The notes: a model not told the origin generated them from the letters alone. A DNA stretch of 64,000 nt from Bacillota bacterium (GCA_023460085.1 JAEWRI010000046.1:202750-266749), one strand, 5' to 3'. Shown: positions 14,365 to 64,000, counted from the first letter of the stretch. A program made the numbers and translations.

Positions 14365-14405
14365 GCGGTTATAGCGTATATTGGTGGGCTAAGGGAGGAG
14401 CAGCG

Positions 14406-14996: not shown

Positions 14997-15452
14997 CGAA
15001 AATTCCATCGGGACAAAGCGGATGCCGTTCTGCGTTTGCTCGGCATCCGTTTCAGTAAATTTCAACCTGCGGTATATTTCCACGGCATACGGCGAGGAGT
15101 TGACGGTGACGCGCTCCGCGCCCGCCGCCCGGCACGCCTGTGCGCAGCATTCCCACAGTGCGCGCCCGATGCCCTGCCGGTGATACTCCTTTTCCACAAA
15201 GAACAGGCTGATGTGTGCTTCCCTGCGCAGCGCCAGCACGCCGCGCAGTTCGCCGCCCGCAAACGCGCCCCACAGACGCAGCTCCCCCGCGTCCTTCATG
15301 CGGTTGATTGCTTCCGGTTCGATAAACGCGCGGAACGTGTCCACGCCCTCCGCGCTGTATTCGGGCGCTTCAAATTCCGAGAATACCCGCCAGACAAGCG
15401 CCATCGCGGGCGGGATATCTTCCCTTTTCAGCAGCCGTATCTCCATGCTCAT
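14988..15452 (-). CDS. GNAT family N-acetyltransferase
   Basis: 154 aa with the acetyl-CoA motif HRQGIGRALW. Start overlaps the upstream methyltransferase stop codon (ATGA). Confidence 0.75.
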   Translation of the reverse strand: MSMEIRLLKREDIPPAMALVWRVFSEFEAPEYSAEGVDTFRAFIEPEAINRMKDAGELRLWGAFAGGELRGVLALRREAHISLFFVEKEYHRQGIGRALWECCAQACRAAGAERVTVNSSPYAVEIYRRLKFTETDAEQTQNGIRFVPMEFSLF

Positions 15453-47775: not shown

Positions 47776-47818
47776 TCCCAAAACCTCCTGCGCCGATAGC
47801 GGCGCGCTACGATGCTCT

Positions 47819-47827
47819 ATTATATCA
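47819..47827 (-). promoter_or_regulatory. Candidate extended -10 promoter element (TGATATAAT) for 46441..47775
   Basis: The minus strand reads TGATATAAT about 45 nt upstream of the ATG. No good -35 element is seen. Confidence 0.35.
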
Positions 47828-47857
47828 CAGATACCCCGCCGCCCGCACGGGGCGGGA

Positions 47858-47893
47858 CGGAAAATGCAAAGGCCGCCCGGCAGGGACGGCCCT
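47858..47893 (-). terminator. Candidate terminator after dapL
   Basis: The minus strand reads GGGCCG-tccctgccgg-CGGCC, followed by UUUGCAUUUU. Confidence 0.45.
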
Positions 47894-47897
47894 TGTT

Positions 47898-49115
47898 TCA
47901 CACATGAAGCTTTGCGAATCGTTCCATGGCGCGCGCGGTGTTCTCCTGCGTATTGAACGCGGTCAGGCGGAAGTACCCCTCGCCCGCGCTTCCAAAGCCC
48001 GCGCCCGGTGTTCCGGCCACACCCGCGTCCAGCAGCGCGTCAAAGAAGTCCCACGAGGGCATGCCGCCCGGCGTCTTCAGCCAGATGTAGGGCGAGCTGA
48101 CGCCGCCGTAACACGCGATGCCCAACGCCGTAAGCCCTTCGCGGATGAGCTTTGCGTTGCCAAGGTAATAGTCGATGGTATCCCGAAGCTGCGCCTTGCC
48201 TTCTTCGGAATAGCAGGCCAGCGCGCCCTTCTGCGTCACATACGGCACGCCGTTGAACTTCGTGGTGTGCCGACGGTTCCACATCGCGTTGAGGCTGTGC
48301 AGATTGCCGTCCTCGTCCGCGCCCTGCAACTCCCGCGGGATGACGGTGAACGCGCAGCGCGTACCCGTGAAGCCTGCTGTCTTGGAGTAGCTGCGGAACT
48401 CGATGGCCACTTCCTTCGCGCCCTCAATCTCGTAAATGCTGTGCGGCACGTCGTCCTCGCGGATAAACGCCTCGTACGCCGCGTCAAACAGTATGAGCGC
48501 GCCGGTTTTGCGCGCGTAATCCACCCATTCCTTCAGCTCGGCGGTATGCAGCACCGTACCGGTGGGATTGTTGGGATAGCACAGGTAGATGATGTCCACG
48601 TCGCGCTGCGGCAACGCGGGCTTGAAGCCGTTCTCCGCGGTGCACGGCAGGTAGGTGATATTGCTGTATTGGCTGGTCGCTTCATCGAAGTCGCCCGAAC
48701 GGCCCGCCATCACGTTGGTATCCACATACACGGGGTAAACCGGGTTCAGCACGGCGATATCACACATGGGAGAGAACAGCTCCTGAATGTTGCCCGTATC
48801 GCACTTCGCACCGTCCGACACAAAAATTTCGTCGGGCGCGATGCCAAGGCCCGCATAGTCGCTGCCCGCGATGGCCTCGCGAAGCCAGTCATACCCCTGC
48901 TCCGGCCCGTAACCGTGAAAGCCTCCCTGCGATGCCATATCATCCACGGCCTTGTGCATTGCCTCGGTAACGGCCTTGGGCAGCGGGCGCGTCACGTCGC
49001 CGATGCCCAGCTTGATAATATCCTTGCTTCGGGGATGCGCCGCGATTCGTTTTGCCATCTCAGAAAACAGATAGCTGCCGCGCAGCCGGGTATAGTTGTC
49101 GTTGATCAGTACCAT
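47898..49115 (-). CDS. dapL: LL-diaminopimelate aminotransferase
   Basis: 405 aa. N-terminal [15 protein letters not shown] pattern. PLP-lysine context [13 protein letters not shown]. Full-length DapL-type fold-I aminotransferase. Confidence 0.85.
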
Positions 49116-49447: not shown

Positions 49448-50230
49448 ATGGAATGGTTTATCGGAATTTTTGTATTCATGATCGGCATTGTGATTGGCAG
49501 CTTTCTGAACGTCTGCATCTACAGGGTGCCGCTGGGCGTCTCCATTGCCAAGGGGCGCTCCGCATGCCCGCAGTGCGGCGCGACGCTGACTGCGCTCGAT
49601 CTGGTGCCGGTACTCAGCTACCTCGCGCTGCGCGGTAAGTGCCGCCATTGCGGCGCGCATATTTCGCCCATATACCCTGTTGTAGAGGGCGCAACGGGCG
49701 TGCTGTTTCTGCTGCTTTATTTGAAAACGGGGCTGAGCTGGGATCTTCCGGTGTATGCGGCGCTTGTCTCGCTGCTCATTGCCATCGCCTTTGTTGACTA
49801 CAAACACATGATCATCCCGAATGGCTTTGTGATAGCGGGGCTGATCATCGGCATCATCAAGCTGGCAGTCTCCATATTCACGGATGCATTTGGTTCCTGG
49901 ACACTGTACGCCATCGGCTTCGCTGCGGGCGCGCTGCCGTTGCTGCTTGTGATGGTCTTCTGCGCATTGATCTTGAAAAAGGAAGCCGTCGGCGGCGGCG
50001 ATATCAAGCTGATGGCCTTCGCGGGGCTGATACTGGGCTGGCAGCTCATCATTCCCGCATACCTCATCGGTGTTGTAGCCGGGGCTGTCGCCGGATTGGC
50101 GCTGATGGCGGCAGGAAAGAAGCGGCGCGGCGATGAAATCCCCTTCGGCCCCTTCCTGTGCTTTGGCATACTCGTCAGCGTATTCTTCGGCAACGAGCTC
50201 ATCCTTTGGTACCTGGGGCTGCTGAGATGA
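49448..50230 (+). CDS. pilD: Prepilin peptidase (A24 family, PilD)
   Basis: N-terminal Cys pairs CPQCG/CRHCG. Catalytic Asp contexts AFVDYKH and GGGDIKLMA. 260 aa, polytopic. Confidence 0.85.
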   Translation: MEWFIGIFVFMIGIVIGSFLNVCIYRVPLGVSIAKGRSACPQCGATLTALDLVPVLSYLALRGKCRHCGAHISPIYPVVEGATGVLFLLLYLKTGLSWDLPVYAALVSLLIAIAFVDYKHMIIPNGFVIAGLIIGIIKLAVSIFTDAFGSWTLYAIGFAAGALPLLLVMVFCALILKKEAVGGGDIKLMAFAGLILGWQLIIPAYLIGVVAGAVAGLALMAAGKKRRGDEIPFGPFLCFGILVSVFFGNELILWYLGLLR

Positions 50231-50973
50231 AGCGGTTACGTTCTGAAAAAGGCTTTACGCTGTTAGAAACCCTCCTCGCGATTGCCATCATTGCGGCGAT
50301 CGCGCTGCCGCTTTTTTCAATCTTTCTGCAGTCCGTCAAAACCCAGCAGGCCGCTAAGGGCATACTCAGCGCGAACTACATCTCGCAGGATTATATCGAA
50401 AAGCTGGATACGATGACCTACAGCGATGCGCTGTCGACACTGCCCAGCCGTACCTACACCAACGGGTATTACCTCAGCGCCGCGATCGAACCGTACGGAT
50501 CGGGAGGCGGGCTGTTCGATGGTTCCTGCGACTACGCGCAGCTGTTGTTTTATGACGACGGGCGCATGCTCGCGGTGCTGCCCGATGGGAAATGGCATCT
50601 TTATTCCGCGGTTCCGGCAACCATCTTGCTAAGCTCCAGCGGCGCGTCCTACTCCTTCATGGCCGGCGGCGTTACGCTGACCGGAAGCATGGAAAGCCTG
50701 AACTGTGTGGTCGTCATCAACGCCATGGCCAAGCCCTCCGGCACCGCGTGCAATATTACGCTGAACTCCGCTTTTAAGGCGCTGCGTTATTGTCTGAAAT
50801 ATGACGCGGCGGATATTGCGCTGGCGGGTACGGGCGAGACCTACTGCGATCTGATGGCAGGCGATACGTCTCTCGTCCATGTGACGACGCGTGTTTACGA
50901 GGATGCGGCGGGCGGCACGCCGGTCGCCACCGCGGAAGGCTATATCAGCATCAGGAACTGGAATGAAGACTAA
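50227..50973 (+). CDS. Type IV (pseudo)pilin with prepilin cleavage/methylation motif
   Basis: Start set to MKRLRSEKG|FTLLETLLAIAIIA (ATG 50227 overlaps the pilD stop codon). Classic G-FTLxE class III signal. Confidence 0.7.
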   Translation: MKRLRSEKGFTLLETLLAIAIIAAIALPLFSIFLQSVKTQQAAKGILSANYISQDYIEKLDTMTYSDALSTLPSRTYTNGYYLSAAIEPYGSGGGLFDGSCDYAQLLFYDDGRMLAVLPDGKWHLYSAVPATILLSSSGASYSFMAGGVTLTGSMESLNCVVVINAMAKPSGTACNITLNSAFKALRYCLKYDAADIALAGTGETYCDLMAGDTSLVHVTTRVYEDAAGGTPVATAEGYISIRNWNED

Positions 50974-51379
50974 GCGCGGATTTACATTGATAGAAGCTCT
51001 CCTGGCGCTGGCGCTCTTAACGGTCACAGCGGGGCTGATGTATACCTTTTTCTTTCAGGGCTTCACGCTGTACACCTCGGAGACAAAGACCGCAGCGGAG
51101 CAGGCGTCCCTGCGGCAGGTGCTTTCCGACATCACGAACCGCGTAAGGCTGACTGATAAGGATGACATCCGCTATACCGACGGCGTTCTGTGCATTCAGG
51201 ATGCGCGGTATACCTACGACAGCGCGGAGCATCGTGTACAGCGCGGCGACAGCATACTCGCGGATAACATCGCGGCGTTCCGCGTGACACTGAGTGACGA
51301 CCTGCTCGAGATCCGCATCGAAAGCACCTCGGGTACCGTCATGACCACCTCGCTCTCGCTGGTGGACTCAGGCGGATAA
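50963..51379 (+). CDS. Type IV (pseudo)pilin with prepilin cleavage/methylation motif
   Basis: Start set to MKTKRG|FTLIEALLALALL (ATG 50963), overlapping the upstream gene end. Confidence 0.7.
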   Translation: MKTKRGFTLIEALLALALLTVTAGLMYTFFFQGFTLYTSETKTAAEQASLRQVLSDITNRVRLTDKDDIRYTDGVLCIQDARYTYDSAEHRVQRGDSILADNIAAFRVTLSDDLLEIRIESTSGTVMTTSLSLVDSGG

Positions 51380-51477
51380 CAGATTGAACGGATTTTGTAC
51401 AGCGGGCAGCTTACTCCTGAGGCAATGCATCGGAAGGAAGACAGAATTACCGGATGATGTACAGGAAGGTGTATGGT

Positions 51478-52941
51478 ATGAAAAAAAAGGTGAAAAGAAA
51501 TCGCAATGGCTCTGCAATCATCATGGCGATGGTGACGATGATGGTACTTCTGCTGCTGGGGCTTGCCGTCGCAACGGTATCGATGGGCACGCTCCGCACC
51601 AACGTAGCGGATGCCGTCAACAACGACGCCTACTACGCAGCGGAGTCGGCCGTCGCCAGCGCCATCGAACAGCTTAAATACGAAGTCTCGGCATATTACG
51701 CCGACATGCTGGAGGCCAGTAGCAGCGAATGCGGCACGCTGTATTCGGCGTTCTTTGAAGGCATTAATCAAAACGCGAAGTGGAATTTTCACGAACCTTC
51801 TTTCAATGGAATCATCACCTCCACCACGTTCACCACGGGCAGCTACGACAGCGAAGACGAGGTCTGCGAATTTCTCGTATCATGCACGGCCAAAGCGGAC
51901 AACGGCACACGCTACCGCGTGGACGGCGCGCTGTACGTCAAGAAGGTGGATGTGCGCACAACCAGCGCCGTCTGGCTGGAGATCGATGATGCGGCACTCA
52001 AGGCGGGGGGCACGATCGCGCTCGGCAGCACCAACGGCATGAGCATATCAGGCGGCAACGTCTACACCTCCGCGCTCACCTATACGCGCTCCTGGCTGCC
52101 CTACAACATTTCAGGCGGCCAGTTGATCCTCAGTCCAGGGGTGGCCGCCACCATCAACGACTGCCTCACCTACCCCTCCTATTCGGACCCGGTGATGAGC
52201 GATATCGATCTGTACTGCACCGCCAATACCACGGTCAACTGGTCCAACGTACCCGCCGCCACCGTAGGCATCACCACCGCGCCGGGTGTGACGTTGACCG
52301 TAACCTCCTGCACCGTGCCCGCCGGCATCATCTACGGACGGGGCAATACGGTAATCAAGGACTGCAATGTATATTCCGATGTATACAGCGACGGAACCCT
52401 CTCCATCAGCAACCAGAGCCTGTACGGAGACGTTCATTGCCGCGGTAACTTAACCATCAGCAACTGCACCGTGTATGGCGACGTGTACTGCGACGGCACC
52501 GTAACGTTCTACAGCGCCGCGCTCAAGGGCTCCATATTCTCCTCGGGCGCCATCAAGATGAACGATGGCTCGATGACGGGCAGCCTGCTCTCCATGAGTA
52601 CGGTCACGGTATCCAGCGCGAGCATCGTCAAGGGCATCGTCTATTCTCACACCAAAATCTACTGCGGCAACATGAGCGCAAGCGCCGTATTTTTCTCCGG
52701 CGGGGATATCGAGATTACCGGCAGCATGTCGCTGTCGGGTGCGATGATCGCCAAGGGCAACATCGGCTTCGGAGGGGAAAGCTCTCGCTGGCTCACCATC
52801 AGCTACTCGCATTCCAAGATACAGGATGTCATGTCCAACGAAAACAACGCCGCCATGTTCAGCATCAGCGGCGGCCAACCGAAGCTGGACGAGGACGTAT
52901 TCGTGCGGCAGAGCATCACCGCACAAGGCAGACTATCATAA
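51478..52941 (+). CDS. PilX-N-like membrane-anchored protein with beta-helical repeat C-terminal region
   Basis: Start set to MKKKVKRNRNGSAIIMAMVTMMVLLLLG (PilX_N-like, no G-F-T-L-E). The C-terminal half carries degenerate ~17-20-aa repeats (GDVHCRGNLTISN / GDVYCDGTVTFYS / GSIFSSGAIKMND / GSLLSMSTVTVSS / GIVYSHTKIYCGN), as in bactofilin/polymer-forming beta-helices. Confidence 0.55.
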   Translation: MKKKVKRNRNGSAIIMAMVTMMVLLLLGLAVATVSMGTLRTNVADAVNNDAYYAAESAVASAIEQLKYEVSAYYADMLEASSSECGTLYSAFFEGINQNAKWNFHEPSFNGIITSTTFTTGSYDSEDEVCEFLVSCTAKADNGTRYRVDGALYVKKVDVRTTSAVWLEIDDAALKAGGTIALGSTNGMSISGGNVYTSALTYTRSWLPYNISGGQLILSPGVAATINDCLTYPSYSDPVMSDIDLYCTANTTVNWSNVPAATVGITTAPGVTLTVTSCTVPAGIIYGRGNTVIKDCNVYSDVYSDGTLSISNQSLYGDVHCRGNLTISNCTVYGDVYCDGTVTFYSAALKGSIFSSGAIKMNDGSMTGSLLSMSTVTVSSASIVKGIVYSHTKIYCGNMSASAVFFSGGDIEITGSMSLSGAMIAKGNIGFGGESSRWLTISYSHSKIQDVMSNENNAAMFSISGGQPKLDEDVFVRQSITAQGRLS

Positions 52942-52951
52942 GGAGAACGCT

Positions 52952-53989
52952 ATGATCAGGCAAACCCCAACCGTGGCCATCGACATCGGCCATTCGAATC
53001 TCAAGATGGTTCATACCGCGCCGGACGGCCGCATACTCCGCTTTGTGGTGCATAAAATGCCCGAGGGCTGCGTGGAGGACGTGAGCATACTTTCGGAAGA
53101 CGCGCTGATAAGCTCACTGAAAAACGCGCGGCACACCGCACACCTGACGGCAGGCAAGTGCAATCTGGTGCTGAGCGGCAGCGACATCATTATCCGCCAT
53201 TTCACGCTGCCCGTGCTGCCCGAAGACGAGCTGTACCAGAACATCATCAACGAGATGTCCGGCTACCTGCCCGTTGATCCGGACAAGTACTGCATCGATT
53301 ATAAGATAGCCGGACGTGTACAGGAGGACGGCGTGGACATGTACCGTGTGCTCGTCACCACGGCCCACCGGCGGATCGTCAGCGGATACCGCAAGGCGCT
53401 GCGCCATGCGGGGTACGGCATCCGCGTCATTGATACCTGCGAAAACGCCATTGAAAAGCTGCTGCGCATCCGCTTCGAGAAGGAAGGCCAGTTCTGCGCG
53501 GATGAGGGCATTGCCGTTATCGACTTTGGCACGGCACACACCCGCGTACACCTTTACTATAAGGGCAGCTTCTTTGTGAGCAACGTCATCAAGCGGGCGG
53601 GAGAAAAAATTACCGAAGCCATTTCTCAGACGTCCGGCAAGGATGTGCTGACCGCCGAAACGATGAAGCGCGAAAACGACTTCCTGAGCGGCAGTCATAA
53701 GAACACCGATATCACCGCGGCAGTTACCTACGAGGTGGACTCGCTGCTGTTTGAGATTGCGCGCGTATTTGACTATTTTAAAAACCGCACCAAAAAAATG
53801 GTGGGCGCGATCTACATTGCAGGCGGCGGGTCGCTGCTCCCCGGTCTTCCGGAATATTTGTCGATGCATTTGAAGATGCCGGTTCGCTTTGCGAGCGAAC
53901 TGATGGTACTGCCCGGCAACGTGGACCCCAAGGGCTTTTCTTTCATGCTCAACGCCTATGCCGCCACCTTCAGGGAGGATGCCAAATGA
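52952..53989 (+). CDS. pilM: Type IV pilus assembly protein PilM (actin-like ATPase fold)
   Basis: Start set to MIRQTPTVAIDIGHSNLKMV (ATG 52952, AAGGAGA RBS). VIDFGTAHT and IYIAGGGSLLPGL phosphate-binding motifs. Confidence 0.8.
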   Translation: MIRQTPTVAIDIGHSNLKMVHTAPDGRILRFVVHKMPEGCVEDVSILSEDALISSLKNARHTAHLTAGKCNLVLSGSDIIIRHFTLPVLPEDELYQNIINEMSGYLPVDPDKYCIDYKIAGRVQEDGVDMYRVLVTTAHRRIVSGYRKALRHAGYGIRVIDTCENAIEKLLRIRFEKEGQFCADEGIAVIDFGTAHTRVHLYYKGSFFVSNVIKRAGEKITEAISQTSGKDVLTAETMKRENDFLSGSHKNTDITAAVTYEVDSLLFEIARVFDYFKNRTKKMVGAIYIAGGGSLLPGLPEYLSMHLKMPVRFASELMVLPGNVDPKGFSFMLNAYAATFREDAK

Positions 53990-54591
53990 AAAGCGACATC
54001 AATCTGCTGCAAAAGAAGAAAGGCAAGCAGTATTCCGCGCAGAAGATAGCGCTGATGCTGGTTTTCCTCGTGTTTTTCGCGGGGGCTGTTTACGCGGGCT
54101 TCACGCTGCCGCAGAACGCGCTCACCGCCGCCCAACTGAAAGCCGCGGGGCTCAACCGGGAGCTCACAGGCTCTTCGGGCGCCGGAGACAGCCTGAGTGA
54201 ACTGACCCAGAACTACCTGACGCGCAGCGAGCAGCTGGAAGCGCTCACCGCCATCGACGGGGCGCGCTCCGATATCAACGGCTATCTGGAAGCTGTGGAA
54301 AAATCGCTGCCCACCAGCGCCAATCTCTCTACGCTGACACTCTCCGGCAAGGAAATGTCCATTACGGGCGTCGCGCTGAGCGATGCGGACGTCGCCGCGT
54401 TCTGTCTGCGGCTGCGCGAGACCGGCGCGTTTGCCAATGTATTTCTGCAAAACAGCATTGCCCTGGAGGATTACGGCGTCACCTTCTCTCTTCTGGCCGA
54501 ACTGCCCGCTACGCTGGACAGCAGCGGTATACTGCCCGAGGAAACCGAGGCCGCAGAGAGTGCCGCCACTGCGGAGGAAACAGCATCATGA
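53986..54591 (+). CDS. pilN: PilN-like pilus assembly protein
   Basis: ATGA overlap with pilM. N-terminal INLLQ motif, then a single TM segment and a periplasmic-type domain. Confidence 0.65.
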   Translation: MKSDINLLQKKKGKQYSAQKIALMLVFLVFFAGAVYAGFTLPQNALTAAQLKAAGLNRELTGSSGAGDSLSELTQNYLTRSEQLEALTAIDGARSDINGYLEAVEKSLPTSANLSTLTLSGKEMSITGVALSDADVAAFCLRLRETGAFANVFLQNSIALEDYGVTFSLLAELPATLDSSGILPEETEAAESAATAEETAS

Positions 54592-55253
54592 GTATTTCAA
54601 AACGGGAAAAAGTACTGATCATCGTCGTCGTGCTGCTTGCGCTGCTGGGTGTATACTATCTGTATTACCTGAAGCCGTGCATGGAAAAAATTGAAGACCT
54701 GAAAGTGGAAATCGCCAGCAGCCAGGCGGAGCTTTCCACCCTGGCCCTGCAGAAAAGCCAGCAGGGAACGCTGGAGGAACAGCTGGCGGAGGTGGACGCG
54801 GGGCTTGCCAAATACGCGGACGGCAGCGCGCAGGCGTTCGATCAGCCGCCGATACTCGTATACCTCAGCAAGACCGCCGGGGATAACGCCATCAAGGGCG
54901 CTATCTACTTTGACTTTCCGGTGCAGGTGGGCCAGATTCAACGCTGCCCCATCACCATCACGGTGACATGCACCTACGACGGGCTGCGGAAGCTGCTCAG
55001 CGATTTATCCAGCGCGCCCTATCTGCTGCGCGTCACCTCAATATCCGCCGGTTTGCCCACCGAAGACGACGGTACGGATGAAACCGCCTCCGGCGATACG
55101 TCCGGAAGCACCGAACCTCAAACGCCGCTCATTCCCAATGGGCTGGAGGTCAAGCTGTCGCTGGATTTCTTCTGCCTCTCGGGTGAAATCCCCGTGGATA
55201 CCGTATATGAATTTGATACCGGACGTCAGTACGGCGGCGATATCTTCTATTAA
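54588..55253 (+). CDS. pilO: PilO-like pilus assembly protein
   Basis: ATGA overlap with pilN. TM segment plus coiled coil (MEKIEDLKVEIASSQAELSTL). Position after pilMN. Confidence 0.55.
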   Translation: MSISKREKVLIIVVVLLALLGVYYLYYLKPCMEKIEDLKVEIASSQAELSTLALQKSQQGTLEEQLAEVDAGLAKYADGSAQAFDQPPILVYLSKTAGDNAIKGAIYFDFPVQVGQIQRCPITITVTCTYDGLRKLLSDLSSAPYLLRVTSISAGLPTEDDGTDETASGDTSGSTEPQTPLIPNGLEVKLSLDFFCLSGEIPVDTVYEFDTGRQYGGDIFY

Positions 55254-55384: not shown

Positions 55385-57211
55385 CTATTGAACAATCAGC
55401 GAGATACTGACCTCCGCCGAGTTCAGCGCGCTGCCATCCTCCGCGTCATAGGCTTCGTATCTTATGATGGCGGCATAAACCCCCTGCGGCAGCGGCGGGA
55501 GTGCCACGACACCCACACTCTCTCCCGGATTCAGCAGCCCCGAGGTAAATACCACGGTTCCATCGTTCAGCATCAGACTGACAACCATCTGGCAGCGGTT
55601 TTCCGCCGGGTTGGCAATGCTCACACTCGCGCTGCCTCCGCCGGACGGCAGTGTCAGAGACGCCATGCCCGGTATGGAGATGGACGGCTGCACGCGATAT
55701 TGTGCCGTTGCGATAAAGCGTTCGTCGGCCAGCACAGCACCCGTACCCACTTCGACGAACTGCACCTCTATGGCCTTCATGCCGATGCCCGAAACGGTTG
55801 CCCGGAACGTATAATCGGCATCCGCGGCCGCGAATCCGGCAGGCGGGCCGTACGCGTCCGTAAGGGGCAGCCAGCCGCCCGTATCTTCATCCAGATACTC
55901 CAGCGTTACATCGGAGGGCATGGTGAAGTAGGCGCGCACCTTCTTGCCCGCGTCGTCGTGGGCAGTGGTGGTGAGCATAAATGTCTGCGGCTCGCCGGCA
56001 AAGAATTCCGGCAGATCGGCGGTGACGGCCATGGGCTGCTCCACCGTCACGGCAATGTCCGTGCCGGCCAGCACGATACCCGTCCCCACCTCGACATACT
56101 CCACGCCTATCGTTTTCGCGCCGGGTTCAGTAAATTGAGCGCGCAGCGAAAGCGTTCCGTCTGCCACCGCAAAGCCCGTGTCCGGGCCGAATACCGCGGG
56201 AAGGGGCAGCCAGTTCCCCGTGGCGCTGTCCAGATATTCGACAGCAACGCCGGATGGAATGGCAAAGTACGCCCGCACCATCCTGCCCGCATCGCCGTTG
56301 GCTATCGTGGTCAGGCTGAACTGCGCGGGCCGTCCGACACGGAACGTCGGCACAGTGGCAGTCAGCTGCATCGCGCCGGTTACGGCAACGCCTTCAACCT
56401 GCTCGGCAAGCACTTCGCCGCCGTCCGTCTTCAGCTGAAATTTCAGGCTGTACGCGCCGGTACTGTGCGCGGTAAAGCGCACGTTCATCGAAGCCGTCCA
56501 GTCGGGCGTAATGCTCGCAAACGAACCCAGCGTGCCATCCGTCACAGTCTGCCAGACACCGCCGGTTTCCACCTCCAGCGTGCCGCTGCCGCCGGTAACC
56601 TCACAGCTGAGCGATCCCGCCAGCGTATCACAGCCCAAATCATCGCTTGTCACCGAAAGTGAAAATCCCGTCGGGGCGTTCGCGGCGATCTCTTCCGGCA
56701 CCGTGGTATCCAGCGCATAGACGGAGCGCCGGATGATATAGCCGTTGGTATTGACATAATACCGCCCGGTTACCGCACCACCCGCGTCCAGCACCCATAC
56801 CTTCGTAATGGCCGAAAAGGCAGGAGTCGCATCCACGCTGTTAAACCACGTGTACGTGGAATCCACATTTTCAGATTCCATATACTTGCGGATGATTTCA
56901 CGAAAATTGACGAATTTCGTGGTAACCCCGCTTACATACGCCTGGAATCGATCCATGACGTTGCTTCCCAGCGTATCAAAGTAAAACTTTGCCAGTTTCG
57001 CGCTGTCCGCGTCCGGTTCATCCTCATATACCATATAGGAAGTGAGAAGGTCATCATAGTCGATATAATAACAGTCGGTGCCGTCTGAAATCACGTACGC
57101 AACGGGAATATCCGTCGAGCCCGTGCCAAACACAACCCGCGCGGTGCCGAAAAGCGCCGCAACGGTCAGCAAGCCTATGATCGCAATCATCAACGCTTTA
57201 TTTCTCATCAT
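55385..57211 (-). CDS. Large membrane-anchored/secreted protein with tandem Ig-like repeats
   Basis: The track start is GTG. I prefer ATG at 57209-57211 or 57206-57208 behind GGAGAAG. N-terminal hydrophobic anchor (ALMIAIIGLLTVAALFG). Two clearly homologous ~110-aa repeats (..VRAYFAIPSGVAVEYLDSATGNWLPL.. and ..VRAYFTMPSDVTLEYLDEDTGGWLPL..). Confidence 0.6.
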   Translation of the reverse strand: MMRNKALMIAIIGLLTVAALFGTARVVFGTGSTDIPVAYVISDGTDCYYIDYDDLLTSYMVYEDEPDADSAKLAKFYFDTLGSNVMDRFQAYVSGVTTKFVNFREIIRKYMESENVDSTYTWFNSVDATPAFSAITKVWVLDAGGAVTGRYYVNTNGYIIRRSVYALDTTVPEEIAANAPTGFSLSVTSDDLGCDTLAGSLSCEVTGGSGTLEVETGGVWQTVTDGTLGSFASITPDWTASMNVRFTAHSTGAYSLKFQLKTDGGEVLAEQVEGVAVTGAMQLTATVPTFRVGRPAQFSLTTIANGDAGRMVRAYFAIPSGVAVEYLDSATGNWLPLPAVFGPDTGFAVADGTLSLRAQFTEPGAKTIGVEYVEVGTGIVLAGTDIAVTVEQPMAVTADLPEFFAGEPQTFMLTTTAHDDAGKKVRAYFTMPSDVTLEYLDEDTGGWLPLTDAYGPPAGFAAADADYTFRATVSGIGMKAIEVQFVEVGTGAVLADERFIATAQYRVQPSISIPGMASLTLPSGGGSASVSIANPAENRCQMVVSLMLNDGTVVFTSGLLNPGESVGVVALPPLPQGVYAAIIRYEAYDAEDGSALNSAEVSISLIVQ

Positions 57212-57225
57212 ACTTCTCCGGGCCA

Positions 57226-57903
57226 CTAACTTTTCCGGACCCTGACGTGAGAACGGTACCCTCCGTCTTCCAGCGCCGGTACAGTCAAATAATACTTGCT
57301 CCCGTTAAACTCCATCGCCTGACCGTCATACGTGACCGTGTAGTCGCCCGCCGGATTTACCACGACCGTAACGATCATATACCCTGCCGGTGCAACCCCC
57401 TGCTTAGCGGATACCGAATACGTAAACTCGGGAGTCGGTTCCACAGACTCGCTGGGAGAGGTGGAAGGGGATGTAGACGTCGACGGTGACGCGGTCGCCG
57501 TGGACGTGGGGCGCGGGGTTGTAGAAGGCCGCGGGGTACCGGAAGGCCTTGGAGTTGAAGTCGGAGGCGCGGGGGTTGCCGTTGTGCTCTCCGTTACAGT
57601 AGCGGTTGCACTCGCCGATACCGTTGCGGTCGGCGTTGAAACCCCTCCGGATATGCTCACCGTGGGCGTGGGCGTGGGCCCTGCCAACGGCACCGATTCC
57701 TGGGGCAGTGATTCCACCGGGACAGGCGTAGGTATCATGGTGATCTGCGAAATCTGATGCTGCGCCCTGACCAGCGCGCCAACCAGAAACGCGATGCCGA
57801 CGATGACAACAATATGCAGGGGAATCAGCACCAGCCTTCTTCTTCTTTTTTTCTCTTCTTCAGGGTCTTGGCTTCTCGTGCTGCGTTTATTATCTTCAGC
57901 CAT
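57226..57903 (-). CDS. Single-pass membrane protein with Pro/Thr/Ser-rich stalk and small C-terminal domain
   Basis: Start set to MAEDNKRS (ATG 57901-57903 behind GGAGGG). Basic cytoplasmic head, TM segment (LVLIPLHIVVIVGIAFLVGALV), ~110-aa PT/ST-rich linker and a ~70-aa beta-rich end. Confidence 0.55.
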   Translation of the reverse strand: MAEDNKRSTRSQDPEEEKKRRRRLVLIPLHIVVIVGIAFLVGALVRAQHQISQITMIPTPVPVESLPQESVPLAGPTPTPTVSISGGVSTPTATVSASATATVTESTTATPAPPTSTPRPSGTPRPSTTPRPTSTATASPSTSTSPSTSPSESVEPTPEFTYSVSAKQGVAPAGYMIVTVVVNPAGDYTVTYDGQAMEFNGSKYYLTVPALEDGGYRSHVRVRKS

Positions 57904-57969
57904 GGGTTTGCCCTCCAATACGGATTTCGTACAAATGCAGGCTATGGGGACCATATATTTAAGGAAGAA

Positions 57970-58650
57970 CTACTGCCCTTCTTCAGGGGGTGAACCTTCC
58001 CGAACATCCCTGCGTGTTTTTCTTTTCCGGATTACTTGATGCAGCAGCAGCGATATCCCCGCGACAGCCGCCGCTCCCGCTGCCCACCACCAGTATGGCA
58101 CGGATGCCAGAAAGCCAGTGGACGGCACGGCTTCATCGCCGCCGTCGCCCGCTTTGACGACGGTAAGAACCGTCTCCTTTTCCCATACCGTCTTATCCGC
58201 CGGGCGGGATACCACAGTGAACCGCAAGAATGCGGTGTATGTCCCGTCTGCTGCTGCCCGGAACGCTTCCGCATCGATTTCTACAGAGACGCTGTAGGCC
58301 TCCCCCGCCTCTCTTTCGTCAAACGACTCCGGTGGATCGAACGCTACGGCATACGGTATCGCATTGCCGTCCGCCGCTGCCAGCGCCCCGGAGGACAGCC
58401 CAATGCTGAGCGTCTCCCCGCTTGCCAGCAACAGCTCGCCTATGGCAAACTCGCCCAGCGTCATGCGCGTGTTGGGATAATACAGTTCCGCGTCAGGCGG
58501 CGGCGTGAACGAATACATGGGTTCAACCACGCACTGTACGTCACTGGATGTCAGCCCCGCGCTGGCAGACGCCGCCGAAACGCCCGCAGGCAGCCACGCC
58601 AAAGTAAGCAGGACTGCCGCAGCAACGTAAAAATTGCGTCTGTGCTTCAA
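57970..58650 (-). CDS. Cell-wall-sorted protein: stand-alone copy of the FT[IV]-module plus VPSTG sorting signal
   Basis: TTG start behind AAGGAGAG. Signal peptide (..PAGVSAAS). ~130-aa module ending DGTYTAFLRFTVVS. VPSTG (58114..58128), then a 28-aa hydrophobic stretch and RKRKTRR. Confidence 0.65.
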   Translation of the reverse strand: MKHRRNFYVAAAVLLTLAWLPAGVSAASASAGLTSSDVQCVVEPMYSFTPPPDAELYYPNTRMTLGEFAIGELLLASGETLSIGLSSGALAAADGNAIPYAVAFDPPESFDEREAGEAYSVSVEIDAEAFRAAADGTYTAFLRFTVVSRPADKTVWEKETVLTVVKAGDGGDEAVPSTGFLASVPYWWWAAGAAAVAGISLLLHQVIRKRKTRRDVREGSPPEEGQ

Positions 58651-58729: not shown

Positions 58730-59947
58730 TTAGCCGTTATACGTAATGGTAAATACCATGGTGCCGCTGTAGCTGCCCGCCTTGACGATAGCGCCCGTGT
58801 CCACGGTCACACGGCCATCCTGCACCCCATCGCCAGAGAACGAGGCAAACTGCGCGCCAGCAGTCAGCGGACTTCCGCCGGCTGCCGTATTATACAGCGA
58901 GTAATTCAGCGTCGTAGCGGGAGTAGCCCCATCGCTCATCTTAAAGGTGCTTTGAACCGCAACATCGATATGAGCGCCTGCCTCAATTACCGCGCCCGAC
59001 GCAGCAACATCGAATTCCTGCGTTTTGGTGCCGTTGTCCTTAATCAATGTGCCGAGATTTACCACCGCCGGTATGGTAATGGTATAGACAGGGTTAACGT
59101 TGGCCGAAACATCGGTTCCCTCATCGGCGGCCACAAGCGTCAGCGACGGGTGGTTGACCGCGGCGTTGAAGATGTCGATCCTGTGCTGGGACATCATCAG
59201 CGTGGAGTTGCTCACCGTGTACGCAACCCCGGCACGCGGCTGGAAGCCGATGAAGTCAGGCGCAGCCAGCAGCGATTCGGAAAAGTCGATAGTGACGCCG
59301 CTCATGATAAGCGTGCCATCGTTTTTCCCGGAGAGCGATACGCGGCCTTTGGAAAGATACACATTCTCCAGCTTGTCCACGCTGCCCTTGCCCGCGTTGC
59401 TGTAATAAATACTGCCCGCAAAATCGCCTCCGCCACGGGCTTCCACCCGGACGCTTTTGATATACGATCCGCTGCCCAGCACTTCGATTATCTTATTCGC
59501 GCCGTTTGAATCCCAATAGTACTGGTTGTTGTTCGCAATCAGCGTCAGACTGTCCAGCGTTACGTTATTCCCGGCGAGCGTGATAAAGTTCTGCCAGTGC
59601 CAGTTACCGCCGGAAGCCGCGTCCACGACCTTGCTGCTGGTGATGACCGTGCCCGTGCCGCCTTTGATCGTGAGGTTGTTCGCCGTAATCGGGAAAATAA
59701 AGTCGGTTCCGCCATTGATGCTGATGGAAGAATACGTTGCCACCAGTCCAGGCGTCAGATCGAACGTCTTGTGCGACGCAAGCACCCACGTCTGATCATC
59801 AGCGCCGCCGCCTGCCTGACTTGCGATTGCCGCCGCAAGCTGTTCTGCCGTGCTGATGTTTACCGTGGTGCCAGCCGCGAGCGCCGCTGCGGGTACCATT
59901 GTCAGCACCAGTGCAACCACCAGGATAAGTATGAATGACTTTTTCAT
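58730..59947 (-). CDS. Secreted beta-helix protein with conserved C-terminal ..GTMVFTITY module (paralog 1)
   Basis: Signal peptide MKKSFILILVVALVLTMVPAAALA. The variable N-region is homologous to that of paralog 4. The last 121 aa form the conserved module. Confidence 0.7.
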   Translation of the reverse strand: MKKSFILILVVALVLTMVPAAALAAGTTVNISTAEQLAAAIASQAGGGADDQTWVLASHKTFDLTPGLVATYSSISINGGTDFIFPITANNLTIKGGTGTVITSSKVVDAASGGNWHWQNFITLAGNNVTLDSLTLIANNNQYYWDSNGANKIIEVLGSGSYIKSVRVEARGGGDFAGSIYYSNAGKGSVDKLENVYLSKGRVSLSGKNDGTLIMSGVTIDFSESLLAAPDFIGFQPRAGVAYTVSNSTLMMSQHRIDIFNAAVNHPSLTLVAADEGTDVSANVNPVYTITIPAVVNLGTLIKDNGTKTQEFDVAASGAVIEAGAHIDVAVQSTFKMSDGATPATTLNYSLYNTAAGGSPLTAGAQFASFSGDGVQDGRVTVDTGAIVKAGSYSGTMVFTITYNG

Positions 59948-60043
59948 TTTTTCTCCTTCGTTTTCTTATTGATATTTGCGGACACGTGACAACGCGATGT
60001 CATCGCATTGCTGTCACGGTCTTATCCGTTCTTCATCAAAAAC

Positions 60044-60079
60044 GCAGCCTGGATAAGCGGGGCTGAAGCTCAGTCCCGC
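60044..60079 (-). terminator. Possible terminator/attenuator between paralog 2 and paralog 1
   Basis: Minus-strand hairpin GCGGGACUGA-gcu-UCAGCCCCGC (one mismatch), then CAGCC..GGCUG and CGUUUUU. This is the only long (146 bp) spacer in the array. Confidence 0.4.
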
Positions 60080-60093
60080 CCCGGCCTTCGTCG

Positions 60094-61248
60094 TCAGTCG
60101 ACATAGGTAATCGTAAATACCATGGTGCCGCTGTAGCTGCCCGCCTTGGTGATAGCGCCCGTATTCACGGTCACACGGCCATCCTGCACACCGTTGCCAA
60201 GGAACGAGGCAAACTGCGCGCCCGTAAGCAGAACGCTTCCGTCTACTGCCGTATTGTACAGCGAGTAAGCCAGCGTCGTAGCGGGGCTGGCGCCATCGCT
60301 CATTGTAAAGCTGCTTTGAACCGCTACGTCGATATGAGCGCCCGCCTCAATTACCGCGCCCGACGCGGCAACATCAAATTCGCGTGTTTCGATGCCGTTG
60401 TCTTTAATCAAGGTGCCGAAGTTAACCACCGCCGGAATGGTGATGGTATAGACGGGATCCACTTTGGAATTGACCGCGGTGGTTTTGCCGCTGTACCTCG
60501 GGAACACCAGCCCATTGGCGGCGGAATAACCGGTGACCTGATTTTCCACATAGGCACCGTTATTGGCCGCGCTGATGGCCGCCACATCGTCATACGCATG
60601 CGCGTCCGGTGCGCCCGCGTTGGCGATGACCGCGATATCCACCGTGTTGCCGCCAAAGATGTTGCCTGTAAATGTGCACGTCGCATCGGTGCATACCACC
60701 CAGCCGCGCGTTCCGTATACCTTATTGTTGATAATCTGACCCGTTACGCCGCCGTCGATATAAGCCGGCTGACGCAGCGCCCTGACGAGGTTCCCTTCTA
60801 TCAGGAGGCCTGTGGCGTGAGGCGTGAGCAGCATCGCACGGGCAACTTCAGCATCTCCCAGCACATACTGCCCGGTAAAGGAGCAGTTCTTGACGACACA
60901 GTTGGCCCTTACGTTTACGATTCCCGCCTGCGCGGTCTTGTCCGTCTTCAGAATGGTCAGGCCATCCAGTGTCGCACCTGTCTGCATATCAAACACGATG
61001 CTGCTGCCGGATACGGTGATTTCGACACCCGTTGCTGCCGTAAGCGTTACGCCGCTCTTAACGGTATACACGGTGTTCAAGCTCATATCCGCCATAACTT
61101 TAACGACGGTGCCGGAGCTCGCTCCGGCGAGAGCGGTAGCAAGATCCTCTTTGGTGCTCACTTCCACCGGTGCGTCCGCCAACGCAACGGTGGGCACAAG
61201 CACGAGCACCATGATCAGCGCCAACATCAATGCGAGAGTCTTTTTCAT
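60094..61248 (-). CDS. Secreted beta-helix protein with conserved C-terminal ..GTMVFTITY module (paralog 2)
   Basis: Signal peptide MKKTLALMLALIMVLVLVPTVALA. Beta-helix-type repeats (VVKNCSFTG.., LLIEGNLV.., IINNKVYG.., TFTGNIFGG). The module is nearly identical to that of paralog 1. Confidence 0.7.
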   Translation of the reverse strand: MKKTLALMLALIMVLVLVPTVALADAPVEVSTKEDLATALAGASSGTVVKVMADMSLNTVYTVKSGVTLTAATGVEITVSGSSIVFDMQTGATLDGLTILKTDKTAQAGIVNVRANCVVKNCSFTGQYVLGDAEVARAMLLTPHATGLLIEGNLVRALRQPAYIDGGVTGQIINNKVYGTRGWVVCTDATCTFTGNIFGGNTVDIAVIANAGAPDAHAYDDVAAISAANNGAYVENQVTGYSAANGLVFPRYSGKTTAVNSKVDPVYTITIPAVVNFGTLIKDNGIETREFDVAASGAVIEAGAHIDVAVQSSFTMSDGASPATTLAYSLYNTAVDGSVLLTGAQFASFLGNGVQDGRVTVNTGAITKAGSYSGTMVFTITYVD

Positions 61249-61293: not shown

Positions 61294-62634
61294 TTAATCC
61301 AAATAGGAAATCGTAAATACCATGGTGCCCCGGTAACTGCCCGCGGCAGTGATTGCGGATGGATCCACGGTGGTACTGCCATCCTCCGTGCCATTGCCTG
61401 TAAAGGTTGCAAATGCGGCGGGCGGGGTTATCTGCCCCGATTCGTTGCTCAGCGTATATGCCAAGGGTACGGAACCCGCCCCGTTATCGTCCTTCATCAC
61501 GAAAGGACCCGCAACGGATACAACGATGGAAGCCCCGTCGCCGACAAGTACATCTCTCGCCTCAATGTCGAACTCCTTCGTAACCGGACTGCCTTCCCTG
61601 ACAAGCGTACCGAAATCTATGGCAGCCGGAATCACGATGGTGTAGGCAGGACTGACATCTGCCGTTACCTCGGTACTGTCAAAATGCGGACAGGGCGCGC
61701 TGTCCCTGAGATCCAGCATGCTCGCGGTAAAGCCGGTAAACGTGCCGCCCCAGTAGACATCCGTGGATGCAAGGTACACCGACAGCGCGGGCGCATTGAC
61801 CACATTGCCCAGGATATCCGAGCCCGTTATCACCACATTGACCTGTGTGGATGCCCTGAATACGATGGCGTCCCCGCCCGGGCAGGATAGTACACTGTCG
61901 GTAATGGTGAGGGTACCATTATTGGCTGTGCCCGCAGTCTCGCCCAGGCGTACCGCGTAATCCGGCGCGTTGGCGTTAATGCGCACATTCGTCAGTGTAA
62001 TATCGCTGCTGTTGTTGGCATTGATACCGGAATTCGTATCATTTGTGACGATATTCTCCACCGTAAGCGTGTGGCATCGGGCCTGAACGACACAGTCGAG
62101 CCGCGCAAACGTGCAGTTCCGTATCGTAGTGTTATAGGCCGTATTGCCGCCCGAGGAACCAGCCTGCACCGCAAAGGTGTATTCTCCCGATTCGTCCCCG
62201 GTGAAATCACAATCCTCAATGGTCACGTTGTGCGCGTACTTTTTCATATCGATTGTGTACACATGCGTCGTAAGAGTGATTCCCGTCTTATCAAACGCCA
62301 GCCCGCGGATGGTCAGCGTGTCCGTACCCGCGTTTCTGTTTGCGCCGTCGATGACCATATTGCCTTGGAATACAGCCCCGGTTTGTCCGGCAATGACGAT
62401 ACTCTTGTCTGCCTGCTGCAGTATCTGCACCGTCTCGTTATAGGTACCGGCTTTCACCACGATTTCCCACGTTCCCGCGGCACCTGCCTGCACCGCGTCA
62501 ACCGCGGACTGAAGGGTCGTGTACGCCTCACCCGGCCCTACGTTGAGGGTGTAATCCGCCGCCAGCGCAATTGTCGGCATGAGTACCAGCATCATCATCG
62601 CTGCCAGCAAAATGAAAAGCGCTTTTTTCATCAT
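61294..62634 (-). CDS. Secreted beta-helix protein with conserved C-terminal ..GTMVFTISY module (paralog 3)
   Basis: Signal peptide MMKKALFILLAAMMMLVLMPTIALA. Right-handed beta-helix-like repeats (NVTIEDCDF, NTTIRNCTF, TLTVENIV, ITLTNVRI, TLTITDSVL). This is the most divergent copy of the module. Confidence 0.7.
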   Translation of the reverse strand: MMKKALFILLAAMMMLVLMPTIALAADYTLNVGPGEAYTTLQSAVDAVQAGAAGTWEIVVKAGTYNETVQILQQADKSIVIAGQTGAVFQGNMVIDGANRNAGTDTLTIRGLAFDKTGITLTTHVYTIDMKKYAHNVTIEDCDFTGDESGEYTFAVQAGSSGGNTAYNTTIRNCTFARLDCVVQARCHTLTVENIVTNDTNSGINANNSSDITLTNVRINANAPDYAVRLGETAGTANNGTLTITDSVLSCPGGDAIVFRASTQVNVVITGSDILGNVVNAPALSVYLASTDVYWGGTFTGFTASMLDLRDSAPCPHFDSTEVTADVSPAYTIVIPAAIDFGTLVREGSPVTKEFDIEARDVLVGDGASIVVSVAGPFVMKDDNGAGSVPLAYTLSNESGQITPPAAFATFTGNGTEDGSTTVDPSAITAAGSYRGTMVFTISYLD

Positions 62635-62674: not shown

Positions 62675-63934
62675 TCAGTCGATATAGGTAATGGTAAATA
62701 CCATGGTTCCGCTGTAACTGCCCGCCTTGGTAATAGCGCTGGTATCCACCGTCACCCGTCCATCCTTAGGGCCGCTTGCGGTGAACGACGCGAACTCTGC
62801 GTTATTGCTGAGTTTGCTGCCGCCTTCAGCCTGGTTGTATAACGAATATCCAAGCCACGTAGGCGGGGTCGCTCCGTCGCTCATCTTAAACTCGCTCTGG
62901 ACATTTACGTCGATATGCGCACCCGCCTCAATCACAACATCCTGCGCGACGATGCTAAAGTCCTTAGTTACAAGGCTGCTGCCTTTAACCATCGTTCCAA
63001 AATCTACGCTTGCCGGAATGATGATAGTATAGGTGGGGCTCACAGCGGCGGTTACATCTGTTCCGGTATCCTTAACCAGCGTAGTGCCCAGCGGCGCTTG
63101 TTCAAAGATCTGCTGCTGTTCATCCGCCAATTCGTCATAAATTATGGTGAAATCGACCGCGTTAATGACATCCGGGTTTTTGCTGATCACGCGGTAGAGA
63201 TCCGGTCTGTAGCCCGCATACCATGATCCGCGGAAGTCGATGGTGGTTCCGCCCGTCAGGTTCAGCGTACCGGCGCTGACATAGGAGGTGCCGCAGGAAA
63301 TCCAGGCCTGCGTTACCAGCACATTGTCCAGCGTCGCCGTACCGATATCCTTGTCGGAGTTCTGAGGGTTGAAGAAAATGCTGCCCGCAAAGTAGCTGGT
63401 GTAGCCTTCCCAATAATCTGTGTCCGATCCGACCGCTATACCCAGCTGAGCGCAGTAGTCCTCGTGGGTGACAACATTGTTGTGCAGAATATCAATGTTC
63501 CTCAGCGTTACATTCCGCCCCATCACTTCAAACGCTTTATTGGTGTCGATCTTTGGCCGGACGGTCAAATCCTGGACCGTCACGTCATCGCCGGCAATCG
63601 CAAACATATTCTGGCTTGCCCAGCTGCCGTTTCTTGAAACTTTAGAGCTCGTAATCACCGTTTTATCGGTGCCCGCGCCATTAATGGTGATACCGTTTTG
63701 AACGATTGGAAAATACCACCCGGTCTGTCCTCCATATGAAATGGTCATGTTTCTGCTGATGTCATAGACCCCGGCCGCAATATTCCACGTCTGGCCCGGT
63801 GCCTGATTGGCGATGGCCGTCTCCAGCTCCGCGGAGGTCGTGATGTTCACCGTTGTCCCCTCCGCGAGTGCCACGGCGGGCACCAGTGCCAATACCAGCG
63901 TAAGCGCCAACATCACTGCTAAAATCTTCTTCAT
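62675..63934 (-). CDS. Secreted beta-helix protein with conserved C-terminal ..GTMVFTITY module (paralog 4)
   Basis: Signal peptide MKKILAVMLALTLVLALVPAVALA. The N-region is homologous to paralog 1 (GTTVNI[ST]T..L..AIA.QA..QTW). Module present. Confidence 0.7.
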   Translation of the reverse strand: MKKILAVMLALTLVLALVPAVALAEGTTVNITTSAELETAIANQAPGQTWNIAAGVYDISRNMTISYGGQTGWYFPIVQNGITINGAGTDKTVITSSKVSRNGSWASQNMFAIAGDDVTVQDLTVRPKIDTNKAFEVMGRNVTLRNIDILHNNVVTHEDYCAQLGIAVGSDTDYWEGYTSYFAGSIFFNPQNSDKDIGTATLDNVLVTQAWISCGTSYVSAGTLNLTGGTTIDFRGSWYAGYRPDLYRVISKNPDVINAVDFTIIYDELADEQQQIFEQAPLGTTLVKDTGTDVTAAVSPTYTIIIPASVDFGTMVKGSSLVTKDFSIVAQDVVIEAGAHIDVNVQSEFKMSDGATPPTWLGYSLYNQAEGGSKLSNNAEFASFTASGPKDGRVTVDTSAITKAGSYSGTMVFTITYID

Positions 63935-63972
63935 TGGTTTTTCTCCTTCAAATGATTTTTAATCATCACCGA

Positions 63973-64000
63973 TTAATCCACATAGGTAATGGTAAATACC
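63973..64000 (-). CDS. 3' end of a fifth paralog (partial, runs off the window)
   Basis: The minus strand reads ..V F T I T Y V D stop, identical in style to the other module ends. It lies 38 bp upstream of the paralog 4 start. Confidence 0.5.

Follow-up and report, generated by a model that had tools for sequence, protein, structure and literature searches.

The subject of this analysis is a group of paralogous genes in a 64,000-nt stretch of DNA from a Bacillota bacterium (GCA_023460085.1, JAEWRI010000046.1:202750-266749), hereafter the window, in which positions are counted from the first nucleotide. On the minus strand, the genes form a head-to-tail array, P5-P4-P3-P2-P1, encoding two-part proteins in which a variable head of ~230-300 amino acids (aa) is followed by a C-terminal module of ~122 aa. 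Each gene is preceded by a GGAG-type ribosome-binding site, and its product starts with a typical Sec signal peptide whose last residues are ALA. An earlier note on this DNA had described an array of five genes; four are complete, and the fifth is visible only as its last 28 nt in the window:

63973..64000, minus strand: P5, last 28 nt of a fifth paralog (...VFTITYVD*), with the stop codon at 63973-63975 and the remainder off the window
62675..63934, minus strand: P4, 419 aa; Sec signal peptide, putative beta-helix head related to the P1 head, C-terminal module (62675-63055)
61294..62634, minus strand: P3, 446 aa; signal peptide, predicted right-handed beta-helix head, module (61294-61668)
60094..61248, minus strand: P2, 384 aa; signal peptide, head with no BLASTP relationship to that of P1, module (60094-60474)
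58730..59947, minus strand: P1, 405 aa; signal peptide, head homologous to the P4 head, module (58730-59110)

At the array's far end, positions 63969-64000 match the 3' end of P4 with 84% identity. The P4 module gave a hidden Markov model (HMM) match of 9e-49, and the most divergent module in the window is that of P3, which shares 46-54% identity with the rest. Intergenic spacers measure 40-45 nt, with the exception of the 146 nt between P2 and P1 (59948-60093).

Histories of heads and modules

P1 and P2 combine similar modules with unrelated heads. Positions 58730-59095 and 60094-60459 align without gaps at 310 of 366 nt (84.7% identity), and identity falls to 29-35% in the same register just outside this stretch. 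All four identical strings quoted in the earlier note occur exactly twice, 1,364 nt apart (58749/60113, 58802/60166, 58967/60331 and 58980/60344). Long shared runs are thus present, but the term 'near-identical' was too strong: the full modules, 82-84% identical at the amino acid level, differ at 63 of 381 nt, with 33 of the 63 mismatches at third codon positions and a transition/transversion ratio of 38/25. The longest identical run, 36 nt, is expected at this identity (p ~0.10) and, therefore, gives no evidence of a very recent sub-tract. With 15% nucleotide divergence, the P1/P2 event is not recent.

The similarity has sharp limits. In a sliding-window profile, P1/P2 identity stays at ~45% in the head, which is the background for an optimized alignment of unrelated DNA, and steps up to 73-93% at the head/module junction, so divergence is not uniform along the two genes. 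The 3' limit of similarity is the stop codon. A maximum chi-square test placed the breakpoint at 59101 in P1 and 60465 in P2, three nucleotides off the module start, with a value equaled in 0 of 1,000 permutations (p<=0.001). The high-identity tracts are accordingly as follows:

58730..59101, minus strand: tract in P1, bounded by the stop codon and the head/module junction
60094..60465, minus strand: tract in P2, pairing with P1 58730-59101

The heads are related in a different way. Those of P1 and P2, described earlier as not alignable by eye, share 20% of their amino acids and yield no BLASTP match at 1e-5. The P1 and P4 heads, for which a resemblance had been proposed, are 33% identical over 294 aa (BLASTP E 5e-19; 42% over MAFFT-aligned columns) and contain the GTTVNI[ST]T and ITSSKV motifs named in support. 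The P4 module DNA is indeed more diverged, the P1/P4 modules being 66% identical at the nucleotide level. In a codon alignment of P1, P2 and P4, informative sites across signal peptide and head split into 68 that unite P1 and P2 against P4 and 161 that unite P1 and P4 against P2, whereas the module has 84 of the first kind and 16 of the second (Fisher's exact test, 1.8e-20). Head and module histories, therefore, disagree, as the earlier note had suspected.

Nei-Gojobori estimates of synonymous (dS) and nonsynonymous (dN) divergence set the P1/P2 modules apart, with dS of 0.42-0.43 and dN of 0.10-0.12. Other window module pairs have dS of at least 1.2, and all heads range from 1.6 to 1.9. Because the P1/P2 module dS is by far the lowest, the common ancestor of these two modules is much younger than any other in the array. 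Comparisons between genomes are all saturated in dS, and module dN/dS is low (0.11-0.25).

The comparison with other genomes covered 12 loci in Bacillota metagenome-assembled genomes (MAGs), obtained by a scan of one genome per GTDB species, and one from the contig encoding the relative P0002. These loci are designated L001-L013, and the prefix W_ marks window genes. Window genes and their head orthologs compare as follows:

P4 and L002_a: head 77%, module 52% identity
P2 and L002_b: head 65%, module 53%
P2 and P0002: head 65%, module 72%
P3 and L001_c: head 79%, module 57%
P1 and L005_a: head 56%, module 53%

From these relationships, the four head types are shown to be old paralogs with recognizable orthologs in other Clostridia genomes. 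The modules of P1-head orthologs are distant from the P1 module (41-53% identity). DNA profiles between orthologs of different genomes run at ~65-85% in the head and fall to 50-60% past the junction, and module dN amounts to 0.32-0.45 versus a head dN of 0.12-0.35. The mosaic recurs in L002, where L002_a, with a P4-type head, and L002_b, with a P2-type head, have unrelated heads and modules that are 84% identical (dS 0.59); their DNA profile rises from ~48% to 83-91% at the head/module junction.

A bootstrapped neighbor-joining tree of 20 modules grouped W_P1 with W_P2 (98% support), then with P0002 (88%) and with W_P4 (94%), and L002_a with L002_b (100%). The head-ortholog pairings W_P4+L002_a, W_P2+L002_b and W_P1+L005_a received 0% and W_P3+L001_c 13%. 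The P4 module, 63-65% identical to its neighbors in the tree, lies within the window-lineage module clade. Separate head and module trees had been proposed; the four-taxon head tree of the window genes alone has poor resolution, owing to saturation of the P2 and P3 heads. Modules track genome lineage and heads track head type, which points to domain-limited concerted evolution. At the level of sequence comparison, module-limited concerted evolution is shown to have arisen at least twice, in the window and in L002. Together, the low dS, the contrast with orthologs and the module tree strengthen the earlier proposal that recombination or concerted evolution acted on the module. The P3 module appears to have escaped homogenization.

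Module family, predicted fold and cluster partners

Pfam and NCBIfam scans assigned no family to the module. A profile built from the window modules retrieved at least 453 representatives at E<=1e-3 and 171 at E<=1e-10 from 1.84 billion cluster representatives, with family clusters counted at 50% identity. Queried with a single module, a word-indexed protein search retrieved one relative; queried with the profile, it retrieved 21 short proteins, which, like all named family members, are labeled 'hypothetical protein'. The carriers are gut/rumen-type Clostridia, for example Christensenellales, Oscillospiraceae and Lachnospiraceae, and at every locus recovered the module genes stand in tandem arrays of two to seven. 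The module is C-terminal in 142 of the best 150 proteins, several of its motifs are invariant across the family and its carriers are mostly 350-580 aa long with very diverse heads. In 44 proteins, it begins within 60 residues of the M start; these comprise stand-alone subunits of ~150-190 aa and some cut sequences. Since neither Pfam nor NCBIfam has a model, the members are labeled 'hypothetical protein' and nothing was found in the literature searched, the module family and its gene cluster appear to be undescribed so far. A limited body of literature likewise contained nothing relevant on SCPU/Csu-like proteins in Gram-positive bacteria.

Two variations on this architecture were seen. A minority of proteins have the reverse order, with the module N-terminal after the signal peptide and then a beta-helix (L001 6070-7464; P0049, P0076, P0097 and P0132). 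Giant relatives of 1,200-3,565 aa also exist (P0041; L006 5-6253; L012 4275-9203; L009 16-3642). The 30 partial module-like stretches in P0041 suggest that the N-terminal half of the module may also serve as a generic repeat unit.

Family models cover the heads unevenly. The P3 head matched Pfam Beta_helix with 28.2 bits (cut-off 25.9), the P4 head matched NCBIfam beta_helix_1 at 8e-9, under the model's cut-off, and the P2 head had a weak NosD match. For the P1 head, which is homologous to that of P4, Pfam and NCBIfam scans gave no family. P3, at the least, is therefore predicted to have a right-handed beta-helix head; for P4 and P2 the evidence is weaker. Such folds are typically met in adhesins and in enzymes that act on polysaccharides. 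A single-sequence AlphaFold model of full-length P1 was unusable, with a predicted local distance difference test score (pLDDT) of 44.

Modeled from a 69-sequence alignment, the module was predicted by AlphaFold as an all-beta domain (pLDDT 97). Its top 50 Foldseek matches in the PDB were almost all chaperone-usher pilin domains, with probability 1.0 and template modeling (TM) scores up to 0.66. They included the pilin domain of CfaE, CsuA/B (6fqa_B, TM 0.66), CfaB, CsuE, CupE, Caf1, FimA/F/G/I and PapE/H/G. Against viral structures, Foldseek returned nothing at E<=0.001. At the sequence level, Pfam SCPU (PF05229) was matched by ten of the 69 modules at E<=1 (best 2.8e-5) and DUF4402 by eight; the window P1 module reached E 0.029 and 15.2 bits against the SCPU cut-off of 22.4. 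The top PDB profile match was CsuA/B (E 0.29), in an alignment that paired FGTL with FGTL, LaYslY with VAYNVY and the C-terminal aGsYkgTmtFti with QGDYKDTLLVTV. A V-x-A-x-V segment is conserved at the head/module junction and, in stand-alone members, close to the N-terminus of the mature protein; it lies 4-10 residues past the predicted cleavage site in several of the latter and further away in others. Judged by predicted fold and by motifs, the module may be a remote member of the Csu/SCPU pilin superfamily or convergent on it.

Downstream of P1 lie further genes with counterparts at other loci:

57970..58650, minus strand: anchor protein, 226 aa; signal peptide, ~110-aa domain, VPSTG, hydrophobic stretch and KR-rich tail (sortase-type signal)
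57226..57954, minus strand: 242-aa protein; N-terminal membrane helix, Ser/Thr/Pro-rich linker, small C-terminal domain
55385..57226, minus strand: 613-aa protein, membrane-anchored; internal repeats of ~110 aa, C-terminal ~100 aa (55385-55759) forming the companion domain described below
49448..55253, plus strand: type IV pilus set, convergent on the array; prepilin peptidase, two N-methyl pilins, PilX-like, PilM, PilN and PilO/T2SS-M-like proteins

The anchor gene has orthologs at the same position in L001, L002, L004 and L005. Across loci, its product carries a VPSTG, VPDTG, VPGTG, PQTGD, VQTGD or PNTGD motif ahead of a hydrophobic stretch and a basic tail. In L002 (11503-12573) and L004 (11528-12610), VPDTG/IPDTG lies ~45-50 residues ahead of the membrane helix, and ~90 residues follow the helix. 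As this layout is atypical for a sortase substrate, anchoring in L002 and L004 may occur by membrane insertion and not by wall linkage.

L001 is syntenic with the window for the anchor gene, the 242-aa gene (conserved beside the anchor gene at 11187-11915), the 613-aa gene and the type IV pilus genes. Its counterpart of the 613-aa gene (11872-13758, 628 aa) also ends in the companion domain, which in the window protein was recognized at an HMM value of 1.7e-23. The domain takes its name from a companion gene that stands ahead of the array in ten loci (L001-L004, L007, L008 and L010-L013; for example L001 5194-6024, L002 7041-7865, L010 6693-7229 and L013 5660-6502); the corresponding region upstream of the window array is beyond the window edge. 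Companion proteins consist of an N-terminal membrane helix and a conserved ~100-aa domain (IPGY.SIT…NPEGNPCYF…GEY…MNGA.V.I.LI). Pfam and NCBIfam offered no family for the 226-aa, 242-aa and 613-aa proteins or the companion domain, and a companion profile found no relative by sequence in the PDB.

The long P2-P1 spacer (59948-60093) harbors a GC-rich hairpin (GGCCGGGGCGGG…CAGCCCCGC) that lacks a T-run. Promoter and terminator consensus scans found none in this spacer, the scan performing no better than on shuffled sequence. Given the length of the spacer and its hairpin, P1 and the anchor gene may form a separate transcription unit starting at P1.

Interpretation and rival readings

With a probability of about 0.7, we favor the reading that the array consists of tandem paralogs subject to module-limited gene conversion and that the module is a surface docking or polymerizing fitting, homogenized through a common partner. 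Non-reciprocal homologous recombination between neighboring paralogs would homogenize the modules and stay confined to them because no other stretch is alike enough for recombination. P2 was probably the donor and P1 the recipient, since the P2 module is still closest to that of a P2-head ortholog (P0002), while the modules of P1-head orthologs are distant from that of P1. Homogenization would be episodic, as other adjacent pairs are less alike and P3 is unconverted.

In functional terms, the module would attach or polymerize the heads at the cell surface, probably through beta-strand complementation in which the partner is either another module or the sortase-signal anchor protein, and the membrane-tethered companion might assist assembly. 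Strand complementation is favored because the fold neighbors are strand-exchanging pilins, because a head followed by a C-terminal pilin domain is the layout of the tip adhesins CfaE and CsuE, because the module-only proteins of many arrays resemble shaft subunits and because the V-x-A-x-V segment sits at the expected position of a donor strand. The heads would diversify in their binding or degradation targets. If all heads share a partner, conversion that homogenizes the modules would be tolerated or favored, and modules would diverge between lineages faster than heads.

Several observations weigh against this reading. Adjacent modules are not alike everywhere: those of L001_b and L001_c are 65% identical, those of L013_a and L013_b look ~55-60% identical when judged by eye and the P3 module is an outlier. 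Module conversion and head replacement give the same product and are separated by parsimony only. No close relative of P1 turned up in a metagenome scan, and the best module identity in the scan of one genome per GTDB species was 54%; without a close relative of the window genome, the pre-conversion state is not seen directly. As to function, neither the SCPU nor the CsuA/B sequence matches reach significance by themselves (E 0.29), and strand exchange is beyond what an AlphaFold model of a single chain can reveal. The cluster genes scanned yielded no usher (window and selected loci) and no PapD-family match (window). The N-terminal domain of the anchor (window subfamily) aligned end to end with the module in hhalign at E 0.002-0.007 with a probability of only 6-14%, and the companion domain gave weak PapD-like matches (PF14874, E 0.002-0.005) in two of 11 members. 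PDB sequence searches with full-length P3 and P4, relevant to head function, returned no useful relatives.

A more specific scenario, which we consider possible but doubtful, is an undescribed Gram-positive fiber or display system: Csu/SCPU-like strand complementation without an usher, a root formed by the sortase-signal anchor, an Ig-like companion acting as chaperone and a 'decorated pilus' of different beta-helix heads, whose modules would be kept compatible by conversion. If true, chaperone-usher-type pilins would exist in monoderm bacteria, and the Csu/SCPU pilin superfamily would extend to bacteria without an outer membrane. The likeness to Csu/SCPU and CFA/I subunits (CsuA/B, CsuE, CfaB and CfaE) comprises the predicted fold (TM 0.56-0.66) and operon-like arrays in which a head with a C-terminal pilin domain corresponds to a tip adhesin and module-only proteins to shaft subunits. 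Csu-type FGTL, aromatic-x-aromatic and C-terminal G.Y.DT..ft motifs are also common to the array modules. However, the array hosts are monoderm Clostridia without an outer membrane. No usher occurs among the cluster genes scanned in the window and selected loci, whose hosts are Bacillota MAGs of monoderm families, and the window cluster genes had no PapD-family match. The arrays further differ in having a sortase-signal anchor and a large head on nearly every window-subfamily subunit, and the similarity lies under family thresholds.

The main functional rival, unlikely in our estimation, holds that the module is a non-covalent cell-wall-binding domain following a WxL-, GW- or SLH-like logic, so that homogenization tracks a lineage-specific wall polymer. 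It would fit the nearly always C-terminal position of the module, the coexistence of large head-bearing and small module-only proteins with a membrane-anchored and an LPXTG-type protein and the grouping of modules by lineage. The cluster logic indeed parallels the WxL (Csc) clusters of Lactobacillales and Listeria, in which variable, sometimes beta-helical N-termini precede a common C-terminal domain and which also encode small domain-only proteins, a membrane-anchored accessory protein and an LPXTG-type protein (PMC9772566, PMC10599100). However, no match to WxL (PF13731) at E<=1 was obtained for the window proteins, ten stand-alone members or 69 modules. The module contains no Trp-x-Leu motif or conserved Trp, and the cluster genes had no Pfam match to DUF916 or DUF3324. 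With ~120 aa, it is shorter than the 160-180 aa of WxL domains, and its hosts are Clostridia, not Lactobacillales or Listeria. We, therefore, rejected identity with the WxL domain. The broader wall-binding reading is further weakened by structural neighbors that are pilin domains, not known wall-binding folds, and by the motifs common to CsuA/B.

On the evolutionary side, module-limited conversion competes with head swapping, in which modules stay fixed and heads are exchanged by double crossover through the conserved 5' end and the 3' module as arms. Its end product is the same, and both arms exist, the 5' stretch with ribosome-binding site and signal peptide being 60-76% identical over 88 nt. 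In addition, signal-peptide similarity, with P2 and P4 closest, matches neither the head nor the module pattern. We nevertheless judge swapping to be quite improbable: head order is kept between genomes, L002 having its P4-type gene upstream of its P2-type gene as in the window, and the 5' arm is no more than a short stretch with 58-71% identity. Modules also group by genome lineage whatever head they carry, which would take many coordinated moves as opposed to a few local conversions.

A third account dispenses with recombination and invokes stronger purifying selection on the module alongside fast-diverging heads. The low module dN/dS and the family-wide invariant motifs are compatible with it, but purifying selection cannot be the cause of a P1/P2 module dS of 0.43 where every other pair is saturated. 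Ortholog modules are more diverged than heads, not less, and the step in identity is abrupt and falls at the same place in two genomes; we regard this account as very improbable. Recent duplication of the whole P2 gene was rejected because the P1 head has its own orthologs.

Practically negligible is an artifact, that is, mis-assembly, repeat collapse or a diversity-generating retroelement: the window possibly comes from a metagenome-assembled genome and tandem paralogs are hard to assemble, but the differing sites show third-position and transition bias in two intact frames, the same architecture occurs in 14 independent loci and the evenly spread mismatch bases (A 14, C 16, G 16, T 17) lack the adenine-specific pattern of a retroelement.

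Known systems, significance and remaining window features

Gene conversion among tandem surface-protein paralogs has precedents in bacterial families of adhesins, pilins and outer-membrane proteins. As in known concerted evolution, similarity here is greater within a genome than between orthologs, breakpoints are sharp, dS is reduced in the tract and the pattern recurs. Unlike in the known cases, the homogenized piece is a constant attachment module, a whole domain, and the heads stay distinct; the effect would be to preserve a common fitting, not to generate antigenic variants. Gene conversion itself is textbook, and its domain restriction, recurrence and inverted conservation are noteworthy without being new in kind. 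Heads that are more conserved between species than the 'constant' module run opposite to the usual expectation, and such inverted conservation would be the signature of a part fitting a coevolving partner. Should the module prove to serve in assembly or docking, this would account for the way in which abundant, little-studied commensals display batteries of beta-helix proteins, which may bind or cleave glycans. The module, companion and anchor genes could then serve as markers for finding such loci.

Further known assemblies were considered as candidates. Cohesin-dockerin pairs of cellulosomes follow the same logic, with many heads sharing one small C-terminal docking module, a cell-anchored partner and lineage-specific compatibility. 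The array module, an all-beta Ig-like domain of ~120 aa, differs from the calcium-binding helical dockerin; no dockerin or cohesin match was found, and identity was rejected. Sortase-assembled pilins were discarded as P1-P4 end in ...FTITY(x)(x)* without a sorting signal, VPSTG being present only on the separate 226-aa protein. The subunits of F-ENA spore appendages are not known to carry Sec signal peptides. These appendages were also rejected, the fold there being of the head-neck type (PMC11844507).

TasA/BsaA fibers are Gram-positive, chaperone-free strand-complementation polymers (PMC9674648; bioRxiv 10.1101/2024.11.04.621531), and a point of likeness is the type IV pilus set beside the array in the window and in L001 (13927-19818, same strand). 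In Clostridium perfringens, the operon with the gene for the strand-exchange matrix protein BsaA also encodes BsaC, whose secretion requires the type IV pilin PilA3; some type IV pilus genes are likewise needed for the secretion of BsaA oligomers (bioRxiv 10.1101/2024.11.04.621531). The structural neighbors of our module, however, are chaperone-usher pilins and not TasA, and pilus adjacency is not kept in L002 or L004; the type IV pilus set may belong to the array system. No Pfam match to Peptidase_M73/TasA was obtained among window proteins, stand-alone members and modules, and no SipW or signal peptidase gene was seen among the window cluster genes scanned, so TasA/BsaA identity was rejected.

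Elsewhere in the window, a 39-nt tandem repeat (46505-46760; 6.6 copies, 97% matches) lies in the open reading frame (ORF) 46441-47901 on the minus strand, where it encodes the C-terminus of a membrane protein without a Pfam family. The adjoining ORF for a 4Fe-4S protein probably has its true start downstream of the repeat, an overlapping frame having been listed as its N-terminus. A GC peak (0.67) and strong AT skew at 40-41 kb come from an ordinary gene at 39192-42101 (minus strand), which encodes a 969-aa SbcC/Rad50-like coiled-coil ATPase whose zinc-hook motif reads CPLCG. Relative to the window mean of ~0.58, GC content dips at 4001-5000 (0.45) and 14001-15000 (0.52).

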